From assembly GCA_039030075.1 (NCBI GenBank), contig JBCCEW010000004.1:25826-89825 (forward strand): a stretch of DNA of 64,000 nt, in the 5' to 3' direction. The notes under the pieces were generated by a model. It did no database searches and was not told where the DNA came from. It worked only from the letters and a program-made list of their open reading frames with translations. The translations under genes were made by a program, and so were the position numbers. The stretch is from Myxococcota bacterium (GTDB taxonomy: Bacteria; Myxococcota_A; UBA9160; SMWR01). Each line of letters starts with the position of its first letter. The stretch's first letter is position 1. This document shows, piece after piece, positions 50,374 through 61,439 of the stretch.

Positions 50374-52134
50374 TCAGCCGACGTCGGCCAGGGCGTCGAG
50401 GGCGCGCTGGGCGAGCCCGGCGACGTGACGGTTGTCGTCCTTGGCGGCGTCGGCGAGCGCGTCACGGAAGTACGCTGCGTCGACTCGGGTCATGGCGTTC
50501 ACCGCGTAGAACCGCTCGGTCGGATCTCCCGAACGCTGCGCCGCGACCAGTTCACGGGCCACGTCGAGGCGCCGCTTCTCGTTCTTCGCGTCGCGGAAGG
50601 CGTGGGCCAGTCGCTCGTAGCGATCCTGCACCGCGCCATCGCTCGTGACGACACCGCCGCCGTCGCCGGCCGGCGCCTCGCTGGCCGGCGCTTCGCTCGC
50701 CGGAGCCTCGGGCTCTCCGACCGCGACCATCCGGCGCAGCTCGTCGACCTTGCGGGTCCTAGCGCGTGGCTTCGCCGCGGCGGCTTTCTCGCGCGCCGCC
50801 GTGGCCTTCGACTTCGGACCGCGACGACCCAGGCGTCGGTAGAGCTCGCCCACCGTGGTGGCGCTCTCCGGAGCATCCGGGGCCGCTTCGGCCTCGGCTT
50901 CGGCACCGGGCTGGCGCAGGACATCCGCCAGTCGTGGCATGTCCTTCGTCGGCGCCTTCGTCGACTTCTCGGCGAGAGGGGCCGGCCGATTCGGGACGCG
51001 CGGCCCGCGCGGCACCGCATGCCGGCGCAGGCGGAGCTGGTCGAGGCTACCGAGATCGATCGCCTTCACCGTCTGCTGGACCTTCGACTGGATGGTGTCG
51101 GCTTCGCGCGTCGCCTCTTCGAGCATGTCGTCGATCGAGGCGGGGAGCGCCTGGGATGCCGAGATCATCCGCACCGTCGCAGTCGCGTCGTCGGACGCGA
51201 TGTTGCGGTACAGGCCGATGTACACGGCAGCGCCGCCCGTCTCGCGCTTCAGCTGCTCGACGATCTTCTCGTAGAGAGAGAAGGGGCTCGCCGTCAGAGC
51301 GCGCTCGGACGCCTCGATCACGAGACCGAGGTAGGACACGTCCTTCATGTCCGAGTCCTTCGGCATCATCGGGTTCTCACCGATCGCGCCGCGCACCGAA
51401 TCGAGCACGCCTTCGGCGTTGAGCTCGGGCAGCTCCTCGGTGTGGTAGCTCAGCACACCACCCGAGAAGAGCAGCGTGCGGAAGTCCTCACCATCGAGGG
51501 TGCGAATCGCCTGTGCCGAGTCGCGATCGTTCAGGCGGTTGAAGACGTCGATCGGCTCGACGATCTCGCGGTTGATGGTCTCGAAGTACGAATCGAGGGG
51601 GACGTCCTGGTGGCCCTGCGCCAGACGCGCGTTGTCGATCAGCACCCATCCGTAGGCCGGCGTCGCGGACAGGTCGCGAATCGCGCGCAGCGCGTTCACC
51701 TTGGCGATGCCGCTCTCGTGGTGGTGGGGCAGCGCGGTGAGGATCACGACGGGGAGCGAGAGATCCTCGATCACCTTCGTGAGCTCGGCGACGCACGAAC
51801 CCGTGCCCCCACCGAGGCCGGCGCAGAGCGCCACGACGTCGGCGCCGACGGCATGCTCTTCGACTGCCTTGCGGATGAGATCGGCGTTCTCCGTGACGCA
51901 CTCGGTGCCGTAGTGGGTATCGCTCCCGGCGCCATCCGAGCCTTCGAGGCCGATGTAGATGCGCTGGGATTCGGGCAGGGCGAGGCGGCTGGCCCCGAGG
52001 GAGGTGAGGTCGGTTTGGGCCGTGTTGAAGGCCAGGCCGCGGTATCCACGTCGGTGGAACTCGGCCGCGATGTTGCCGCCGGCCTGACCGAGGCCAACCG
52101 CGACGATCTCGAGAGAACGACCAGAGGGTTTCAT
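50374..52134 (-). CDS. divergent FtsZ/tubulin-superfamily GTPase with about 330-aa basic/Ala-rich C-terminal extension ending in a helical module
   Basis: RBS GGAGAT; LEIVAVGLGQAGGNIAAEF (G-box), FNTAQTDL, ADVVALCAGLGGGTGSCVA (tubulin/FtsZ signature [SAG]GGTG[SA]G), LPVVILTALPHHHESG..., then a long KA/PE-rich tail and a terminal helical module. Confidence 0.75.
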   Translation of the reverse strand: MKPSGRSLEIVAVGLGQAGGNIAAEFHRRGYRGLAFNTAQTDLTSLGASRLALPESQRIYIGLEGSDGAGSDTHYGTECVTENADLIRKAVEEHAVGADVVALCAGLGGGTGSCVAELTKVIEDLSLPVVILTALPHHHESGIAKVNALRAIRDLSATPAYGWVLIDNARLAQGHQDVPLDSYFETINREIVEPIDVFNRLNDRDSAQAIRTLDGEDFRTLLFSGGVLSYHTEELPELNAEGVLDSVRGAIGENPMMPKDSDMKDVSYLGLVIEASERALTASPFSLYEKIVEQLKRETGGAAVYIGLYRNIASDDATATVRMISASQALPASIDDMLEEATREADTIQSKVQQTVKAIDLGSLDQLRLRRHAVPRGPRVPNRPAPLAEKSTKAPTKDMPRLADVLRQPGAEAEAEAAPDAPESATTVGELYRRLGRRGPKSKATAAREKAAAAKPRARTRKVDELRRMVAVGEPEAPASEAPASEAPAGDGGGVVTSDGAVQDRYERLAHAFRDAKNEKRRLDVARELVAAQRSGDPTERFYAVNAMTRVDAAYFRDALADAAKDDNRHVAGLAQRALDALADVG

Positions 52135-52545
52135 GGGGGGATCTCCGGGAAGGGACGAGGTGGATGCCCGCGAACCCGGAGAGGGTCCGCCGGCGGGTTT
52201 CTCGTAGGTAACCCCGGAAGCCGAGTGGGTGTCGCGCAGAAATCGCTGGGAGCGACACTTTCCCGCGACGCCCTCGGGAGCGCGCAGCTTTGGACGCAAA
52301 CGGGCGGACCGCCTGTCGACGGCGGCGGCGTTCGGGAGCCGGATTTCGGCCGATCGACGGCCGCCCCGCGGGCAGGCGGTCTCAGCGACCGGCACTGCCC
52401 TCCGCAGACCTTCGAAGACTCCACTCGCGCTGCAAATGGCCGGCTGAACCCGCCGGGTCCGGCGCCCGCTTCCGGATGAAGCGGGCGCCTCGTCGCCGGA
52501 GAGGAGTGATCCGACGAACCCGGGAGTGGCAGGGCGCCTCTGGGA

Positions 52546-53990: not shown

Positions 53991-54296
53991 TTATTCTGAA
54001 AAAACTCCCCGGCCCGGAGCCCTCGATGAATCCCACCTCTCCGCAGACTCGACAAAGCCAGAATCCCCCCGGGGGATCCGAGCGTTCCACCTTGCCGGTG
54101 TCGGCCGCTCCGTGCACGTTCCGGCAACTGCTCGACTGGATGCGTGACCTCGAGCTCGACGACCAACAGATCGCCGAGGCGCTGGACGACCTGGTCCAGT
54201 CGGGAACCGTGCGGATCCTCGGACGCCGGGCGACCCACCGCATCCTGGGAGGGCGCCGGCATTGAGCGGACGAAACGCCAGCGGCCGAGGCGCGCC

Positions 54297-55229
54297 ATGA
54301 CACTCGAAGACATCGATCGCAGCGAACCCGTCTCGCTGATCGAGGCGGACGCCACGCCCTACTCTCTGGGCGCCGTCGTGCGCCTCACGGGCCTGACCGC
54401 CCACACCCTCCGCGCCTGGGAGCGCCGCTACGGCGCCGTCGCTCCGGCGCGCACACCGCGCGGCACGCGCCGCTACAGCCGCGAGGAAGTGTCACGGCTG
54501 CGCTTGCTGCGTTCGGCGGTCGACGCAGGACATCGCATCAGCGACATCGCACAGCTGAGCGATGACGACCTCGAGCTGCACCTGCAGCCGATCGCGCGTG
54601 CGCCGGTCGACACGCTGAGCGGCGCACTCGAAGCGCTCGAGGCGCTGGACGCGCCGGGGATCGAACAGCTCCTCACCGACCAGCTCGATCTGCTCGGGCC
54701 CAGTCGCTGCGTCCGTCGCGTGATCCTGCCGTTGATGCGCGAAGTCGGTGACCGCTGGGCCCGCGGCGAAGGATCGGTCGAAGCCGAGCACCTGCTGAGC
54801 AGCACCACCCGCGCGCTGCTGGGCGTGGTACTCCGCAACACGCCGCGCCTTCCGCAGGCCCCTCAGCTCCTGTTCTCCACTCCGGAAGGAGAACCCCACG
54901 AGTTCGGATCGCTGTGTGCCGCGGTGATCGCCGCCGGCGCCGGCGCCGCCGTGACCTACCTCGGCCCCAATCTCCCGGTCTCTGCGGTGATCGGCGCGAC
55001 GCGAAAGTCGAACCCGATCGCCGTGGCACTCGGCGTTGTCACCCTCGACCCGCGCCGGGCGCGGGCCTATCTGCGCGAGTTGCGGGCTTCCCTACCCGAT
55101 GAAACCGGGCTCTGGGTCGGCGGCGCTGCGCTCGCCGAGCCGTTGGCCGGCATCGAGGCACTGGACATCGACACGCTCGAGCGGCGCGTGGCGCGCGCGG
55201 CCCGAAGCGCGCTCGCGCCCAGCCGCTGA
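54297..55229 (+). CDS. MerR-family regulator with C-terminal B12-binding domain (CarH/LitR-like light-responsive repressor)
   Basis: MerR HTH (YSLGAVVRLTGLTAHTLRAWERRYG); C-terminal Rossmann-like B12-binding domain with E-P-H-E-F-G (ExHxxG cobalamin lower-ligand motif) ...AAVIAAGAGAAVTYLGPNLP... Confidence 0.7.
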   Translation: MTLEDIDRSEPVSLIEADATPYSLGAVVRLTGLTAHTLRAWERRYGAVAPARTPRGTRRYSREEVSRLRLLRSAVDAGHRISDIAQLSDDDLELHLQPIARAPVDTLSGALEALEALDAPGIEQLLTDQLDLLGPSRCVRRVILPLMREVGDRWARGEGSVEAEHLLSSTTRALLGVVLRNTPRLPQAPQLLFSTPEGEPHEFGSLCAAVIAAGAGAAVTYLGPNLPVSAVIGATRKSNPIAVALGVVTLDPRRARAYLRELRASLPDETGLWVGGAALAEPLAGIEALDIDTLERRVARAARSALAPSR

Positions 55230-57797: not shown

Positions 57798-58148
57798 TCA
57801 GCGGTCCGTGTCGCGCGCCAACAGGATCGCGCCCACCATCTCTTCGGGCATCGCAGCAGGCAACGTGTCGTCGTCTTCGCAAAGACGCTGGCCGAGCTCG
57901 ATGGCGCGCAGGTAGTCCTGGAAGGCCACCTGGCACATCGGACACAGGGTCATGTGGATGTCGAAGCGAGATCGCACCGAGCTCGGCAAGTGGCCCTCGT
58001 AGTAGTCGTGCATGAACGACTCGAACGCTTCACAGGTCAGCATCCCGGGGACGCGGCGAAGCATCCACGAGCCGATCCGGCGCTTCCACGGCGGAGGCGG
58101 ACCGCCGCCCTTCGCGCGCATCAGGAGTCTGGAGAGGAGCGACCACAT
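57798..58148 (-). CDS. zinc-finger (ZAS, HxxxCxxC) anti-sigma factor
   Basis: 116 aa; H...C..C in ...RFDIHMTLCPMCQVAF...; start overlaps the sigma stop as TGATG. Confidence 0.7.
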   Translation of the reverse strand: MWSLLSRLLMRAKGGGPPPPWKRRIGSWMLRRVPGMLTCEAFESFMHDYYEGHLPSSVRSRFDIHMTLCPMCQVAFQDYLRAIELGQRLCEDDDTLPAAMPEEMVGAILLARDTDR

Positions 58149-58780
58149 CAGTCGGCGTCCTCCGCGAAGAGTGGCGCGAGGAGCGTGCGCAAGGCGGATC
58201 GCGCTCGGTGGAGACGCATCTTGATGCTCCCGCGGCTGGTTCCGAGCAACTCGGCGGTCTCTTCGGTAGAGAAGCCGTCGATGTCGCGCAGGAAGAGCAC
58301 GGTGCGGTGGCTCTCGGGCAGGCGCTCGATCGCTTCGCGCACGTGCTTCGCGGTATCGGCGCGGCGGTAGAGCTCCTCGGGGGTGAGATCGTTCGTGTGA
58401 ACCGGACCTTCCCGAAACCCGTAGCGGTCGTAGCGAGGGAGCCAGTCTTCGAGCAGCTCTTCGGGCTTCGCCCGGCGGGAGCGAAGCCGCATCAGCGCGG
58501 CGTTGACGACGATCCGATGGAGCCAGGTCCCGAGGAGCGCGCGCCCTTCGAACCGCCCGATCGATCGATGGGCCGCGAGAAACGCCTCTTGCACGCACTC
58601 GCGCGCGTCATCCTCGTTCTGGAGGTAGCGCTGGGCCACCGAGAGCATGCGCGGGCCCTGGGCGCGGACCAGCTCTTCGAAAGCGGCGGCATCCCCCTCT
58701 CGTAGGCGCGCGACCAGCGCCGACTCGGTCGCCGGGCCGCTCGGGCCAGGAGGATCTTTCGGGTCGCGCGCGTCGCCCAT
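58148..58780 (-). CDS. ECF (sigma-24/sigma-E-like) RNA polymerase sigma factor
   Basis: Region 2 (FEELVRAQGPRMLSVAQRYLQNEDDARECVQEAFLAAHRS) and region 4 (LPESHRTVLFLRDIDGFSTEETAELLGTSRGSIKMRLHRAR). Confidence 0.85.
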   Translation of the reverse strand: MGDARDPKDPPGPSGPATESALVARLREGDAAAFEELVRAQGPRMLSVAQRYLQNEDDARECVQEAFLAAHRSIGRFEGRALLGTWLHRIVVNAALMRLRSRRAKPEELLEDWLPRYDRYGFREGPVHTNDLTPEELYRRADTAKHVREAIERLPESHRTVLFLRDIDGFSTEETAELLGTSRGSIKMRLHRARSALRTLLAPLFAEDAD

Positions 58781-58967
58781 GGGCTCGGGCGCATCCTATC
58801 ACGCGCGCTGGCGTGACCTCTGATGGTCCCCTGCATCTCGGAAGACGAGCCCCAGCGAAGCGGGGGCGGGGAGGTTCCATGCGAAGGAATATCGAGATGC
58901 GCGGCAGCCCAGCACGCCGTTCGCGGCAGCCCGCCCAAACCGGATTGACCTGGCCGCCGAGGCACCG

Positions 58968-60329
58968 ATGAGCGAGGGCCATTGGCTATGGGCCGTGGCG
59001 CTCGGCGCCCTGAGCGCCGCGGCGCTGCCGCTCGGCGCCTGGTTCGGCCTGACCCTGCGGCTTCCGCCCGCGGCCACTGCCGTGTTCGCGTCCTTCGGCG
59101 CCGGTGCCCTGATCGCAGCGCTGAGTCTCGAACTGGTCGCCCCGACCGTGGCCGAGCTCGGACACGACGCCCATGGCGCCGGCGTCTTGGTGACGCTGCT
59201 CGTGGCCTCGGGGATCGGCGGCGTGCTCTTCACCCTCCTCGACCGGATGCTCGCGAGTCGCGGCGGTTTCCTGCGCAAGGTCTCGACGACGATGATGCAC
59301 TTCGCGGCCCTCGACCGCGAGCGCGATGCGACCCGTGTGCGAGAGCTGTGCGCCATCCCGCTCTTGTGGACGCTCCCTGAACGCGAGGTCTCGAAGGCCG
59401 TCCACGATGTCGCCGAGCTGACCTATGCGCCGTCGGAGGTGCTCTTCGCCGAAGGCGACGCCGGTGACCACATCGCCATCGTGCGCTCCGGAGAGGTCCG
59501 GCTCTGGCGCGCGGGCGGGAGCATCGGGACCGTGGGGCCGGGCGCGATCCTCGGCGAGCTCGCCGTACTCACCGAGGGGCCGCACAGCCTCTCCGCCACC
59601 GCCGTCGATGAAGTCGAGGTCCTGACGATCCCCCGCGCCGCGATCGAGGCGTGGCGCACGCGCCATCCCGCCTTCGACGCAGCGCTCCGGGAGATCGGGT
59701 CCGAGCACCTCCGCGACGTGCGTCAGCGCGACGCGATTCGCAGTCGAGAAGAAGAGGACTGGGCGATGCGTGCGATCGATGCGCTCGCGACCGGGGGCCG
59801 GGTACCGACTCCCACCGAGTGGCGACGCGAGGCCGAGAACCACACAGGCTCGGGCCTGGCGGTGTGGTTGGGGTTGCTGATCGATGGAATCCCCGAGAGC
59901 TTCGTGATCGGTGCCGGCCTCCTGGGTCTGGTCTCGGCCGAGCTCGCGGCGAACGGAAGTGTGGCGTTCGCGAACGTGATTCCGTTCACGCTGGTCGGGG
60001 GTCTGTTCCTCGCGAACTTCCCCGAGGCCTTGTCGAGCTCGGTGGCCATGCGCGACCAGGGGTTCTCCCCCACGCGCATTCATCTCTTGTGGGGCAGTCT
60101 CGTTGCCGTCACCGCCGTCGGCGCGGGCTTCGGCTACGTGCTCGGCGCGTCCACGACGCATGCCACCCTCGTCGCGGTGGAGGGAATCGCCGCCGGCGCG
60201 ATGCTGGCTTCCATCGCATCGACGATGATCCCCGAGGCCGTCCACCTCGCGGGCTCGGGCCGGCTGGTCGGGCTCTCGACCCTCGCCGGTTTCCTCGCAG
60301 CCGTCGCCTTCAAGCTACTCGAACACTGA
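58968..60329 (+). CDS. ZIP-fold (ZupT-like) membrane transporter with cyclic-nucleotide-binding (CAP-type) domain inserted in the TM3-TM4 cytoplasmic loop
   Basis: Three N-terminal TM helices, then cNMP-binding fold (...LFAEGDAGDHIAIVRSGEVRL...GAILGELAVLTEGPHSLSATAV...), then ZIP TM4-TM8 with LLIDGIPESFVIGAGL and LANFPEALSSSVAM (ZIP HNxPEG-like motifs with His replaced by Asp/Ala). Confidence 0.7.
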   Translation: MSEGHWLWAVALGALSAAALPLGAWFGLTLRLPPAATAVFASFGAGALIAALSLELVAPTVAELGHDAHGAGVLVTLLVASGIGGVLFTLLDRMLASRGGFLRKVSTTMMHFAALDRERDATRVRELCAIPLLWTLPEREVSKAVHDVAELTYAPSEVLFAEGDAGDHIAIVRSGEVRLWRAGGSIGTVGPGAILGELAVLTEGPHSLSATAVDEVEVLTIPRAAIEAWRTRHPAFDAALREIGSEHLRDVRQRDAIRSREEEDWAMRAIDALATGGRVPTPTEWRREAENHTGSGLAVWLGLLIDGIPESFVIGAGLLGLVSAELAANGSVAFANVIPFTLVGGLFLANFPEALSSSVAMRDQGFSPTRIHLLWGSLVAVTAVGAGFGYVLGASTTHATLVAVEGIAAGAMLASIASTMIPEAVHLAGSGRLVGLSTLAGFLAAVAFKLLEH

Positions 60330-60337
60330 GGAGCCCC

Positions 60338-61096
60338 ATGCTCGCCGTCGCGACCCTGCTCGTCGTGCTGTTGCTCTCGGTCCTGGTCACGCGCATCGCC
60401 AGCGTGGCGCTGGTGCATACCGGCCTCGGCGAAGAAGCAGCGCGCTTCCAGGCGCGCTCGGCCTTCACCGGAACCGGCTTCACGACGGCCGAGACAGAGG
60501 CGATCGTTTCGCATCCGCTGCGTCGTCGCATCGTCGGACACCTCATGCTCGCGGGAAACGTCGGCATCGTGACCGCCGTGTCGTCGCTGCTCGTCTCGAT
60601 GTGGAGCTTCGAAGCCGGCGGTTGGCAGCGTCCCGCTGCGCTCGCGGTGGGGCTTCTGGCGCTATGCGGGTTCGCGACGAGTCGCTGGGTCGATGGCTGG
60701 CTCTGCGCCGCGATCCGCTGGGGTCTGATGCGCTTCTCCGACATCGACCTCCGCGACTACGCGCGCGTCCTCCACCTGCGCGACGACTACAGCATCCACG
60801 AGCTTCGGATCACCTCCGACGACTGGATCTGCGAGCGCACCCTCGGCGAACTGAAGCTGGAGGACGAGGGCGTCCGCGTGCTAGCCGTCGCCTGTCCGGG
60901 CGGAGGGTTCTTGGGGGCGCCACCGTCGGACACGGAGCTGCAAGCGGGAGATCAGCTCGTGATCTACGGACGCGCGTCGCGCATCGCCGAGCTCGAGCAG
61001 CGGCCTGTCGGCGCTTCCGGGGACGAGCGCCACGCCGCCGCCCGCCGCGAGCAGGACGAGCGCACCGCCATGGAGCGGGAGCGCGCGGGGCGCTAG
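60338..61096 (+). CDS. membrane protein with C-terminal TrkA-C/RCK_C regulatory domain
   Basis: Three to four N-terminal TM helices; C-terminal ...ELRITSDDWICERTLGELKLEDEGVRVLAVACPGGGFLGAPPSDTELQAGDQLVIYG... (RCK_C); RBS GAGGAG; 8 nt after the ZIP gene. Confidence 0.65.
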   Translation: MLAVATLLVVLLLSVLVTRIASVALVHTGLGEEAARFQARSAFTGTGFTTAETEAIVSHPLRRRIVGHLMLAGNVGIVTAVSSLLVSMWSFEAGGWQRPAALAVGLLALCGFATSRWVDGWLCAAIRWGLMRFSDIDLRDYARVLHLRDDYSIHELRITSDDWICERTLGELKLEDEGVRVLAVACPGGGFLGAPPSDTELQAGDQLVIYGRASRIAELEQRPVGASGDERHAAARREQDERTAMERERAGR

Positions 61097-61136: not shown

Positions 61137-61439
61137 ATGTATATCGCCATGAATCGATTCCGGATCGCGCGCGGCGCGGAAGAGACCTTCGAGAAGCTCT
61201 GGCGCGAACGCGAGTCTCACCTCGATGGCGTGCCGGGGTTCCAGGAGTTCCACCTGCTGCGCGGCGAGAGCGACGACGACGCGACCCTCTATGCGTCCCA
61301 CAGTCTCTGGAAGGACGAGTCAGCGTTTCGCGCCTGGACCGAGTCGGAGAGTTTCAAGCAGGCGCACGCCCAGGCGCGCGCTCCCCAGGGCACCTACCTC
61401 GAGCATCCGAAGTTCGAGGGCTTCGAGGTGATCCTCTAG
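61137..61439 (+). CDS. antibiotic biosynthesis monooxygenase (ABM) family protein
   Basis: 100 aa ferredoxin-like ABM fold (MYIAMNRFRIARGAEETFEKLWRERESHLDGVPGFQEFHLLRG...). Confidence 0.75.
   Translation: MYIAMNRFRIARGAEETFEKLWRERESHLDGVPGFQEFHLLRGESDDDATLYASHSLWKDESAFRAWTESESFKQAHAQARAPQGTYLEHPKFEGFEVIL

Follow-up and report, generated by a model that had tools for sequence, protein, structure and literature searches.

A ZIP-fold transporter with a CAP-type domain inserted between TM3 and TM4, and the adjacent RCK_C membrane protein, in a Myxococcota genome

The stretch of DNA analysed here (the window) comprises 64,000 nucleotides of contig JBCCEW010000004.1 from the Myxococcota bacterium assembly GCA_039030075.1 (positions 25,826 to 89,825 of the forward strand), and the present work concerns two adjacent genes in it, whose products are called p1 and p2 below (Table 1). 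The first is a real, intact gene for a ZIP-fold transporter that carries a CAP-type cyclic nucleotide-binding domain (CNBD) in the loop between transmembrane helices 3 and 4 (TM3 and TM4), and the second encodes a small membrane protein ending in an RCK_C regulatory domain. Beyond this architecture, we hold with moderate confidence that p1 is an intact carrier with a rebuilt metal site, that its transport is switched by a ligand of the inserted domain, and that p2 serves as a partner of cation transporters.

The open reading frame (ORF) of p1 opens with ATG, a few nucleotides downstream of a GAGG, and closes with TGA, and its G+C content at third codon positions (0.87) is typical of real genes within this window of 70% G+C. 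The Pfam profile cNMP_binding (PF00027) covers residues 152–228 (E=2e-18, 66.6 bits), many solved CNBDs in the PDB resemble p1, and the NCBI record 100% identical to it, from a Myxococcota metagenome-assembled genome (MAG), is labelled 'cyclic nucleotide-binding domain-containing protein'; for p2, too, that MAG has a record with 100% identity. In the AlphaFold model (AF2; predicted local distance difference test, pLDDT, 82.8, with the membrane helices mostly at 85–95), three helices (residues 5–30, 34–64 and 69–97) precede the CNBD and five (295–329, 340–363, 368–395, 398–428 and 431–450) follow it. The insertion therefore lies in the TM3–TM4 loop, as a preliminary description made from the sequence alone had claimed for a complete CAP-type domain. 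The eight helices in this 3+5 arrangement adopt the ZIP fold, and the inserted domain shows the beta-roll with flanking helices that defines the CAP/CRP group. Moreover, the GGFLRK motif, whose residues G99, G100, R103 and K104 vary little or not at all, and a continuous helix connect TM3 to the CNBD. On the other side, residues 249–277 have a pLDDT below 50, and the linker to TM4 contains the invariant W265 and P280 and the nearly invariant A269, A272 and L273.

The identity of the membrane part was reached by scanning the family against Pfam, searching the PDB with a profile and comparing folds. The Pfam Zip profile (PF02535) is matched by 25 of 33 full-length relatives of p1 at E≤0.01 (best E=2.3e-9), and its gathering score is passed by distant CNBD-bearing relatives (P0267 with 61 bits, others with 51.7 and 48.7 bits). 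When a profile of the C-terminal half of p1 was searched against the whole PDB, the sole matches were chains of BbZIP (E=1.4e-3), the GufA-subfamily ZIP of Bordetella bronchiseptica (PDB 5TSA, 7Z6M), whose fold p1 shares; the C-terminal half of one relative, searched alone, likewise returned BbZIP chains only (E about 1e-3). With the full-length p1 profile, CNBD matches drown everything else among the PDB sequences.

The relatives of p1 form more than 1,212 clusters, aligned over 98–100% of their length, and 472 species-representative genomes encode one, spread over Myxococcota, Desulfobacterota, Alpha-, Beta- and Gammaproteobacteria, Planctomycetota, Bacteroidota, Spirochaetota, Acidobacteriota and others. 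This supplies the survey of the fusion in other genomes that the preliminary description had proposed, and it also disposes of the case named there as refuting, a frameshift merging two genes, which is excluded by full-length collinear relatives from independent assemblies in many phyla. Apart from the unusual architecture itself, nothing speaks for an artefact, namely a CRP-like gene joined to pieces of a ZIP gene through a frameshift or an assembly error; hundreds of such relatives and the assembly of the helices on both sides of the insert into one ZIP fold reduce its probability practically to nil. In the wider clade, the proteins measure about 430–470 amino acids with one CNBD, about 610 amino acids with two CNBDs, and up to 865 amino acids; the 610-amino-acid P0275 has the rebuilt ZIP core described below, and this core occurs with two CNBDs. 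Larger variants of 606–865 amino acids (P0267, P0268, P0339, P0348 and P0358), including ones with much longer inserts, were also seen to have the rebuilt core. Some relatives are automatically named 'CRP-like cAMP-binding protein/zinc transporter ZupT', so the domain combination is already visible in the databases. No paper describing the fusion was found in the literature, where open-access text was covered, so that its absence is not proven; what came up on RCK_C and c-di-AMP was general background. The best 80 genome matches of the family are all MAGs, single-cell genomes or uncultured isolates, with no cultured strain among them. The p1 family is a widespread, experimentally unstudied variant of the ZIP transporters.

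The metal site of p1 was compared with that of BbZIP, whose binuclear centre is formed by M99, H177, N178, E181, Q207, D208, E211 and E240, with M1 as the primary transport site, as given in PMC9873690. The two motifs that the preliminary description had read as DGIPES and ANFPEA are indeed present, in TM4 and TM5 (Table 1). In TM4, H177 and N178 of BbZIP are changed to D306 and G307, and P180 and E181 are kept as P309 and E310; in TM5, Q207 corresponds to A349 and D208 to N350, and E211 is kept as E353; in TM6, E240 is changed to T382. Neither the TM4 motif H-N-x-P-E-G nor the TM5 motif (H/Q)-(E/D)-x-P-E-G of the ZIP family is found in p1, although Pro-Glu is kept in both helices. Column statistics for p1 residues refer to its 120 closest relatives. 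D306, G307, P309, S311, N350, P352 and E353 are present in all 120, E310, E55 and E423 in 117, and E405 in 116, and H426 is nearly invariant; position 349 is Ser in 113 relatives and Ala in 7. The carboxylates E55 and E405 have no counterpart at the aligned BbZIP positions (for E55 by manual alignment). N178, D208 and E240 are the residues usually assigned to M2 of BbZIP. Judged by the alignment, M2 of p1 has lost two side-chain ligands and has the third changed, and the binuclear centre of M1 plus M2 including E240 is not found. M1 looks rebuilt rather than lost, with both glutamates retained and Asp in place of His. The earlier claim of an altered metal site holds for the TM4 His and Asn and for the TM5 ligands; it needs qualification in that E310 and E353 are kept and D306 takes the place of H177. 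In sum, p1 differs from BbZIP in a second metal site that lacks ligands (H177 to D, N178 to G, Q207 to A/S, D208 to N, E240 to T) and in a folded domain of about 150 amino acids in the TM3–TM4 loop, and it departs from the definition of ZIP proteins in its Pfam score, in the His/Asn ligands and in the binuclear centre. A relative without a CNBD (P0261, 308 amino acids) has the motifs DGLPES and SNLPEA, so the rebuilt site belongs to the clade and not to the fusion. The binuclear centre may have been reduced to one carboxylate-rich site, made up of D306, E310, E353 and perhaps N350, plus E55 and E405; such a site would be expected to prefer a divalent cation harder than Zn2+ (Mn2+, Fe2+, Mg2+ or Ca2+).

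The downstream gene fits the earlier account of an RCK_C membrane protein encoded 8 nucleotides after p1: its product shows both a match to the profile and the fold of the C-terminal lobe of RCK. The p2 family (more than 1,679 clusters, about 254 amino acids) is also widespread in bacteria and experimentally unstudied. Within the family the N-terminal region is conserved to an extreme degree, and the (almost) invariant motif RFQARSAF[TS]GxG[FY]TTxExE lies there between two hydrophobic helices. The model (pLDDT 79.9) shows a helix at residues 2–26, a short helix at 32–44, a loop with the GxG motif, and helices at 50–58, 60–93 and 97–114, the last followed by an amphipathic helix and then the RCK_C domain. 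For residues 1 to about 93, the predicted fold resembles the pore module of tetrameric cation channels, which we take as a lead and not as a finding. Hydrophobicity sufficient for a membrane span is found in three p2 helices only, and Lys/Arg residues average 6 in the motif-bearing segment and 0.8 in the other loop. The loop charge and the odd helix count, together with a cytoplasmic RCK_C, therefore suggest that the pore loop enters from the cytoplasmic side, in an orientation inverted relative to the tetrameric channel pore modules. Pore loops that enter from the cytoplasm in this inverted orientation are found in glutamate receptors. In comparison with the pore modules of NaK, KcsA and MthK and the P-loops of KtrB/TrkH, p2 has no sequence similarity and no TVGYG filter. 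In comparison with KhtT (of the K+/H+ antiporter KhtU), KtrA/C and GsuK, p2 has neither an RCK_N domain nor the soluble N-domain of KhtT, and it has a three-helix membrane part instead; moreover, a KhtT-type protein combines that N-domain and RCK_C beside a CPA2 antiporter, and the neighbour of p2 in the window is the ZIP-CNBD protein.

The genes p1 and p2 would be co-transcribed and probably translationally coupled, with the Shine-Dalgarno sequence of p2 inside the short spacer. In a neighbour-joining tree of 86 transporters, 8 of the 11 members of one clade are paired with p2, and none of the 75 outside it. Four arrangements occur: p1 followed by p2, as in the window; p2 followed by p1 with overlapping genes; p2 followed by p1 with a gap of about 130 nucleotides; and the divergent one. 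In L081, L082 and L083, which were found by look-ups of two close relatives, p2 lies directly upstream of p1 with stop and start overlapping; elsewhere p2 is adjacent to p1 (L009), divergent from it (L101 and L120) or on its strand (L104 and L106). Since these differing arrangements fall within one clade, the linkage appears to be maintained there. Furthermore, a gene for a CPA1 Na+/H+ exchanger (428 amino acids, PF00999 E=3.6e-38) lies directly upstream of the p2 homologue, ending at or overlapping its start, in 14 of the 80 metagenome loci (L084, L085, L087–L093, L095, L098, L100, L108 and L122). These exchangers occupy about 1.3 kb and carry no regulatory domain of their own. A tree of p2 places ZIP-paired copies among CPA-paired ones within a single clade; the latter are the nearest relatives of the window's p2, and one of them is its sister. 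The neighbours of the other p2 clades are heterogeneous. Because the neighbours in its clade are either the ZIP-CNBD protein or a CPA1 exchanger, p2 may work there with cation transporters of two unrelated folds, and its role could be that of a channel for counter-ions gated by a ligand, or that of a regulatory RCK_C subunit anchored in the membrane, as KhtT is a subunit for KhtU. In L146 (1239–2204) and L147 (4810–5775), an ORF 114 nucleotides downstream of the p2 homologue has a start that, by eye, resembles a CDF metal exporter.

How the inserted domain might act can be proposed from BbZIP, in which a transport domain of TM1/4/5/6 slides as an elevator against a scaffold of TM2/3/7/8, and metal release involves the cytoplasmic end of TM4 swinging away from TM3 and TM7 (both from PMC9873690). 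The CNBD of p1 would thus join a helix of the static scaffold (TM3) to a helix of the moving domain (TM4), which makes it well placed to gate the elevator, and its occupancy would alter how freely TM4 moves against TM3 and thereby switch transport on or off. In the channels MloK1 and SthK and in the Na+/H+ exchanger SLC9C1, none of which is a ZIP, the CNBD follows the membrane domain at the C-terminal end; in p1 it interrupts the membrane domain of an elevator-type carrier, and its cassette has His in place of Arg.

Several observations weigh against the combined reading of p1 as a ligand-switched carrier with a rebuilt site and of p2 as its kind of partner. PF02535 does not match p1 itself at E≤1, its gathering score (35.1 bits) is not reached, and an NCBIfam scan likewise returned no Zip; of the two profiles that the preliminary description expected in one polypeptide, PF00027 was recovered in p1 and PF02535 was matched by its relatives instead. 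In the phosphate-binding cassette, p1 has His206 in place of the Arg in contact with the cyclic phosphate, and position 206 is R in 67, H in 23, N in 10, Y in 9 and S in 6 of the 120 relatives; overall, the Arg is missing in 53 of them (about 44%) and the Glu in 41. As for the substrate, no riboswitch was found upstream in the window (E≤1) or in 11 related loci (at the gathering score), clustering of the neighbours over 163 loci gave no consistent metal-related neighbour of the transporter family, and no nearby cyclase or metal gene appeared among the ORFs scanned from 37 kb to the window end. On the side of p2, the pore-like fold comes from a monomer model with pLDDT 70–85, the N-terminal profile found only chance matches in the PDB and hence no similar solved structure by sequence, and the motif SAF[TS]GxG[FY]TT stands where a selectivity-filter signature (T-V-G-Y-G or related) would be expected. 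Finally, p2 is nearby in 1 of 80 p1-anchored genome loci, and p1 is present in 4 of 56 p2-anchored metagenome loci with room on both sides.

For the inserted domain, these points could mean that it is a degenerate CNBD homologue that binds neither cAMP nor cGMP and acts as a dimerisation or structural module, or as a sensor of some other small molecule. The CNBHDs of KCNH channels and many sensors of the CRP/FNR family do not bind cAMP or cGMP and have a structural role or another ligand. Besides the cassette substitutions, the far stronger conservation of the p1 membrane core than of its CNBD would agree with such a role. However, the domain has a canonical fold and a cassette of canonical length (9 residues from E197 to position 206, as in PKA), Gly196 is present in 118 of the 120 relatives and the Glu in 79, more than half have both Glu and Arg, and the CNBD is retained, and even duplicated, across many phyla. 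We therefore regard degeneration as a serious but less probable account. For p1 itself the cassette combines G196 and E197 with a departure from Arg-(Thr/Ser), and its binding of cyclic nucleotides may be weak, altered or absent; by these residues, about half of the family looks competent and p1 is a doubtful binder. The ligand would probably be cAMP or cGMP in relatives with the canonical Gly-Glu...Arg-Thr cassette, and that of p1 is uncertain because its cassette Arg is His206. The second-messenger-gated conduit of the preliminary description thus keeps its CNBD, and its gating is not secure. It is rather unlikely that p1 is an ordinary ZupT/GufA-like importer of Zn2+ or Fe2+, with neutral ligand changes and a CNBD that does no more than tune activity. 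Such an importer would agree with the ZIP fold, with the two retained metal-binding Glu, with the ability of Asp to coordinate Zn2+ and with the TM5 of BbZIP, where Gln and Asp already take the places of His and Glu. Against it, the equivalents of His177, Asn178, Asp208 and Glu240 are all replaced, the replacements are invariant over the 120 relatives and the CNBD-less relative, which argues for a selected, distinct site rather than drift, and the extra invariant carboxylates E55 and E405 are absent from the aligned BbZIP positions.

For the pair of genes, the pairing is confined to one clade and is not family-wide, and the view of the preliminary description that p1 and p2 together form one system stands for that clade (8 of 11) and does not extend to the family. 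The same counts read from the other side (79 of the 80 p1-anchored genome loci lack p2, and 52 of the 56 p2-anchored loci lack p1), together with the heterogeneous neighbours in other p2 clades, would suit an adjacency without functional coupling, with p2 as a small ion channel in its own right that lies beside various genes by chance. The maintained linkage in the paired clade, in four arrangements that include overlapping stop and start, speaks against this, and so does the matching p2 clade, where the other kind of neighbour is again, and consistently, a cation transporter; we give such chance adjacency little credence. At the opposite end, p1 and p2 might form one complex, in which a ligand-switched ZIP elevator is joined to a small RCK_C-gated channel with an inverted P-loop, p2 being interchangeable between ZIP and CPA transporters, and we put this forward as an improbable, speculative extension. 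Outside the p2-paired clade, the neighbour clustering, in which some large clusters are antisense ORF artefacts of the high-G+C DNA, found no consistent partner of the transporter family.

Table 1. Positions in the window of p1, p2, their parts and the neighbouring features.
Feature	Position	Strand	Basis
p1, ZIP-fold transporter with inserted CNBD, 453 amino acids	58968..60329	+	ORF calling, Pfam, AF2 model
p1 residues 1–104, TM1–TM3 and invariant GGFLRK motif after TM3	58968..59279	+	model, pLDDT 82–95
p1 residues 105–250, CNBD: N-terminal helices, beta-roll, B/C helices; Pfam core 152–228	59280..59717	+	
Phosphate-binding cassette G196-E197...P205-H206-S207, His at the Arg position	59553..59597	+	sequence, columns of 120 relatives
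p1 residues 251–292, low-confidence linker with conserved helix leading to TM4	59718..59843	+	
p1 residues 293–453, TM4–TM8 of the ZIP fold	59844..60326	+	
TM4 motif D306-G-I-P-E310-S (BbZIP H177-N178-L-P-E181-G)	59883..59900	+	sequence, alignment
TM5 motif A349-N350-F-P-E353-A (BbZIP Q207-D208-V-P-E211-G)	60012..60029	+	sequence, alignment
8-nucleotide spacer GGAGCCCC with the Shine-Dalgarno sequence (GGAG) of p2	60330..60337	+	sequence
p2, 252-amino-acid membrane protein: pore-like N-terminal part, third TM helix, RCK_C	60338..61096	+	
p2 residues 1–93, helix, short helix, loop, helix (M1-P-M2-like)	60338..60616	+	model
p2 residues 153–220, TrkA_C / RCK_C (PF02080)	60794..60997	+	Pfam, E=9.8e-13
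ABM-family monooxygenase-like gene, 40 nucleotides downstream of p2	61137..61439	+	PF03992, E=2e-20
187-nucleotide intergenic region between the ECF sigma gene and p1, presumed promoter region	58781..58967	.	
Extracytoplasmic function (ECF) sigma factor, divergent from p1	58148-58780	-	
Probable anti-sigma gene, overlapping the sigma gene downstream; Cys/His-rich N-terminus	57798-58151	-	

The surroundings of the pair are included in Table 1. Scans of the window found no sigma-70-like promoter, terminator or Rfam element around p1 and p2, and a Pfam scan of the putative anti-sigma ORF gave no match. The ABM-family gene lies on the strand of p1 and p2 with no terminator-like site between p2 and it, is followed by a convergent DUF192 gene, and is possibly the third gene of the transcription unit. 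Farther away, the gene at 54144–55229 (+) encodes a MerR-family regulator with a B12-binding domain, an architecture of the CarH-like light-responsive type that myxobacteria are known to have, and the gene at 50374–52395 (-) encodes a 673-amino-acid protein with a tubulin/FtsZ GTPase domain at residues 96–260 and long extensions on both sides.

The regulation of ZIP transporters is poorly understood, and the TM3–TM4 loop is a suspected regulatory element that is disordered in the proteins studied. In eukaryotic ZIPs, this cytoplasmic loop is regulatory, disordered and metal-binding, as in the His-rich loop of ZIP4; in p1 the same loop is a folded CAP-type ligand-binding domain. This offers a folded, crystallisable ligand-binding domain between the scaffold and the transport domain, and p1 is thus a natural system in which the allosteric switching of elevator carriers can be tested, while its invariant Asp/Glu/Asn/Glu site allows a test of what sets the metal selectivity of the ZIP fold. 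Moreover, p2 may represent a new small channel or regulatory family shared with Na+/H+ exchangers, and if p1 and p2 do form one complex, p2 would emerge as a partner subunit of general use to bacterial cation carriers that has so far escaped recognition. As the p1 family is almost wholly known from MAGs, it constitutes a sizeable unexplored piece of bacterial ion homeostasis.

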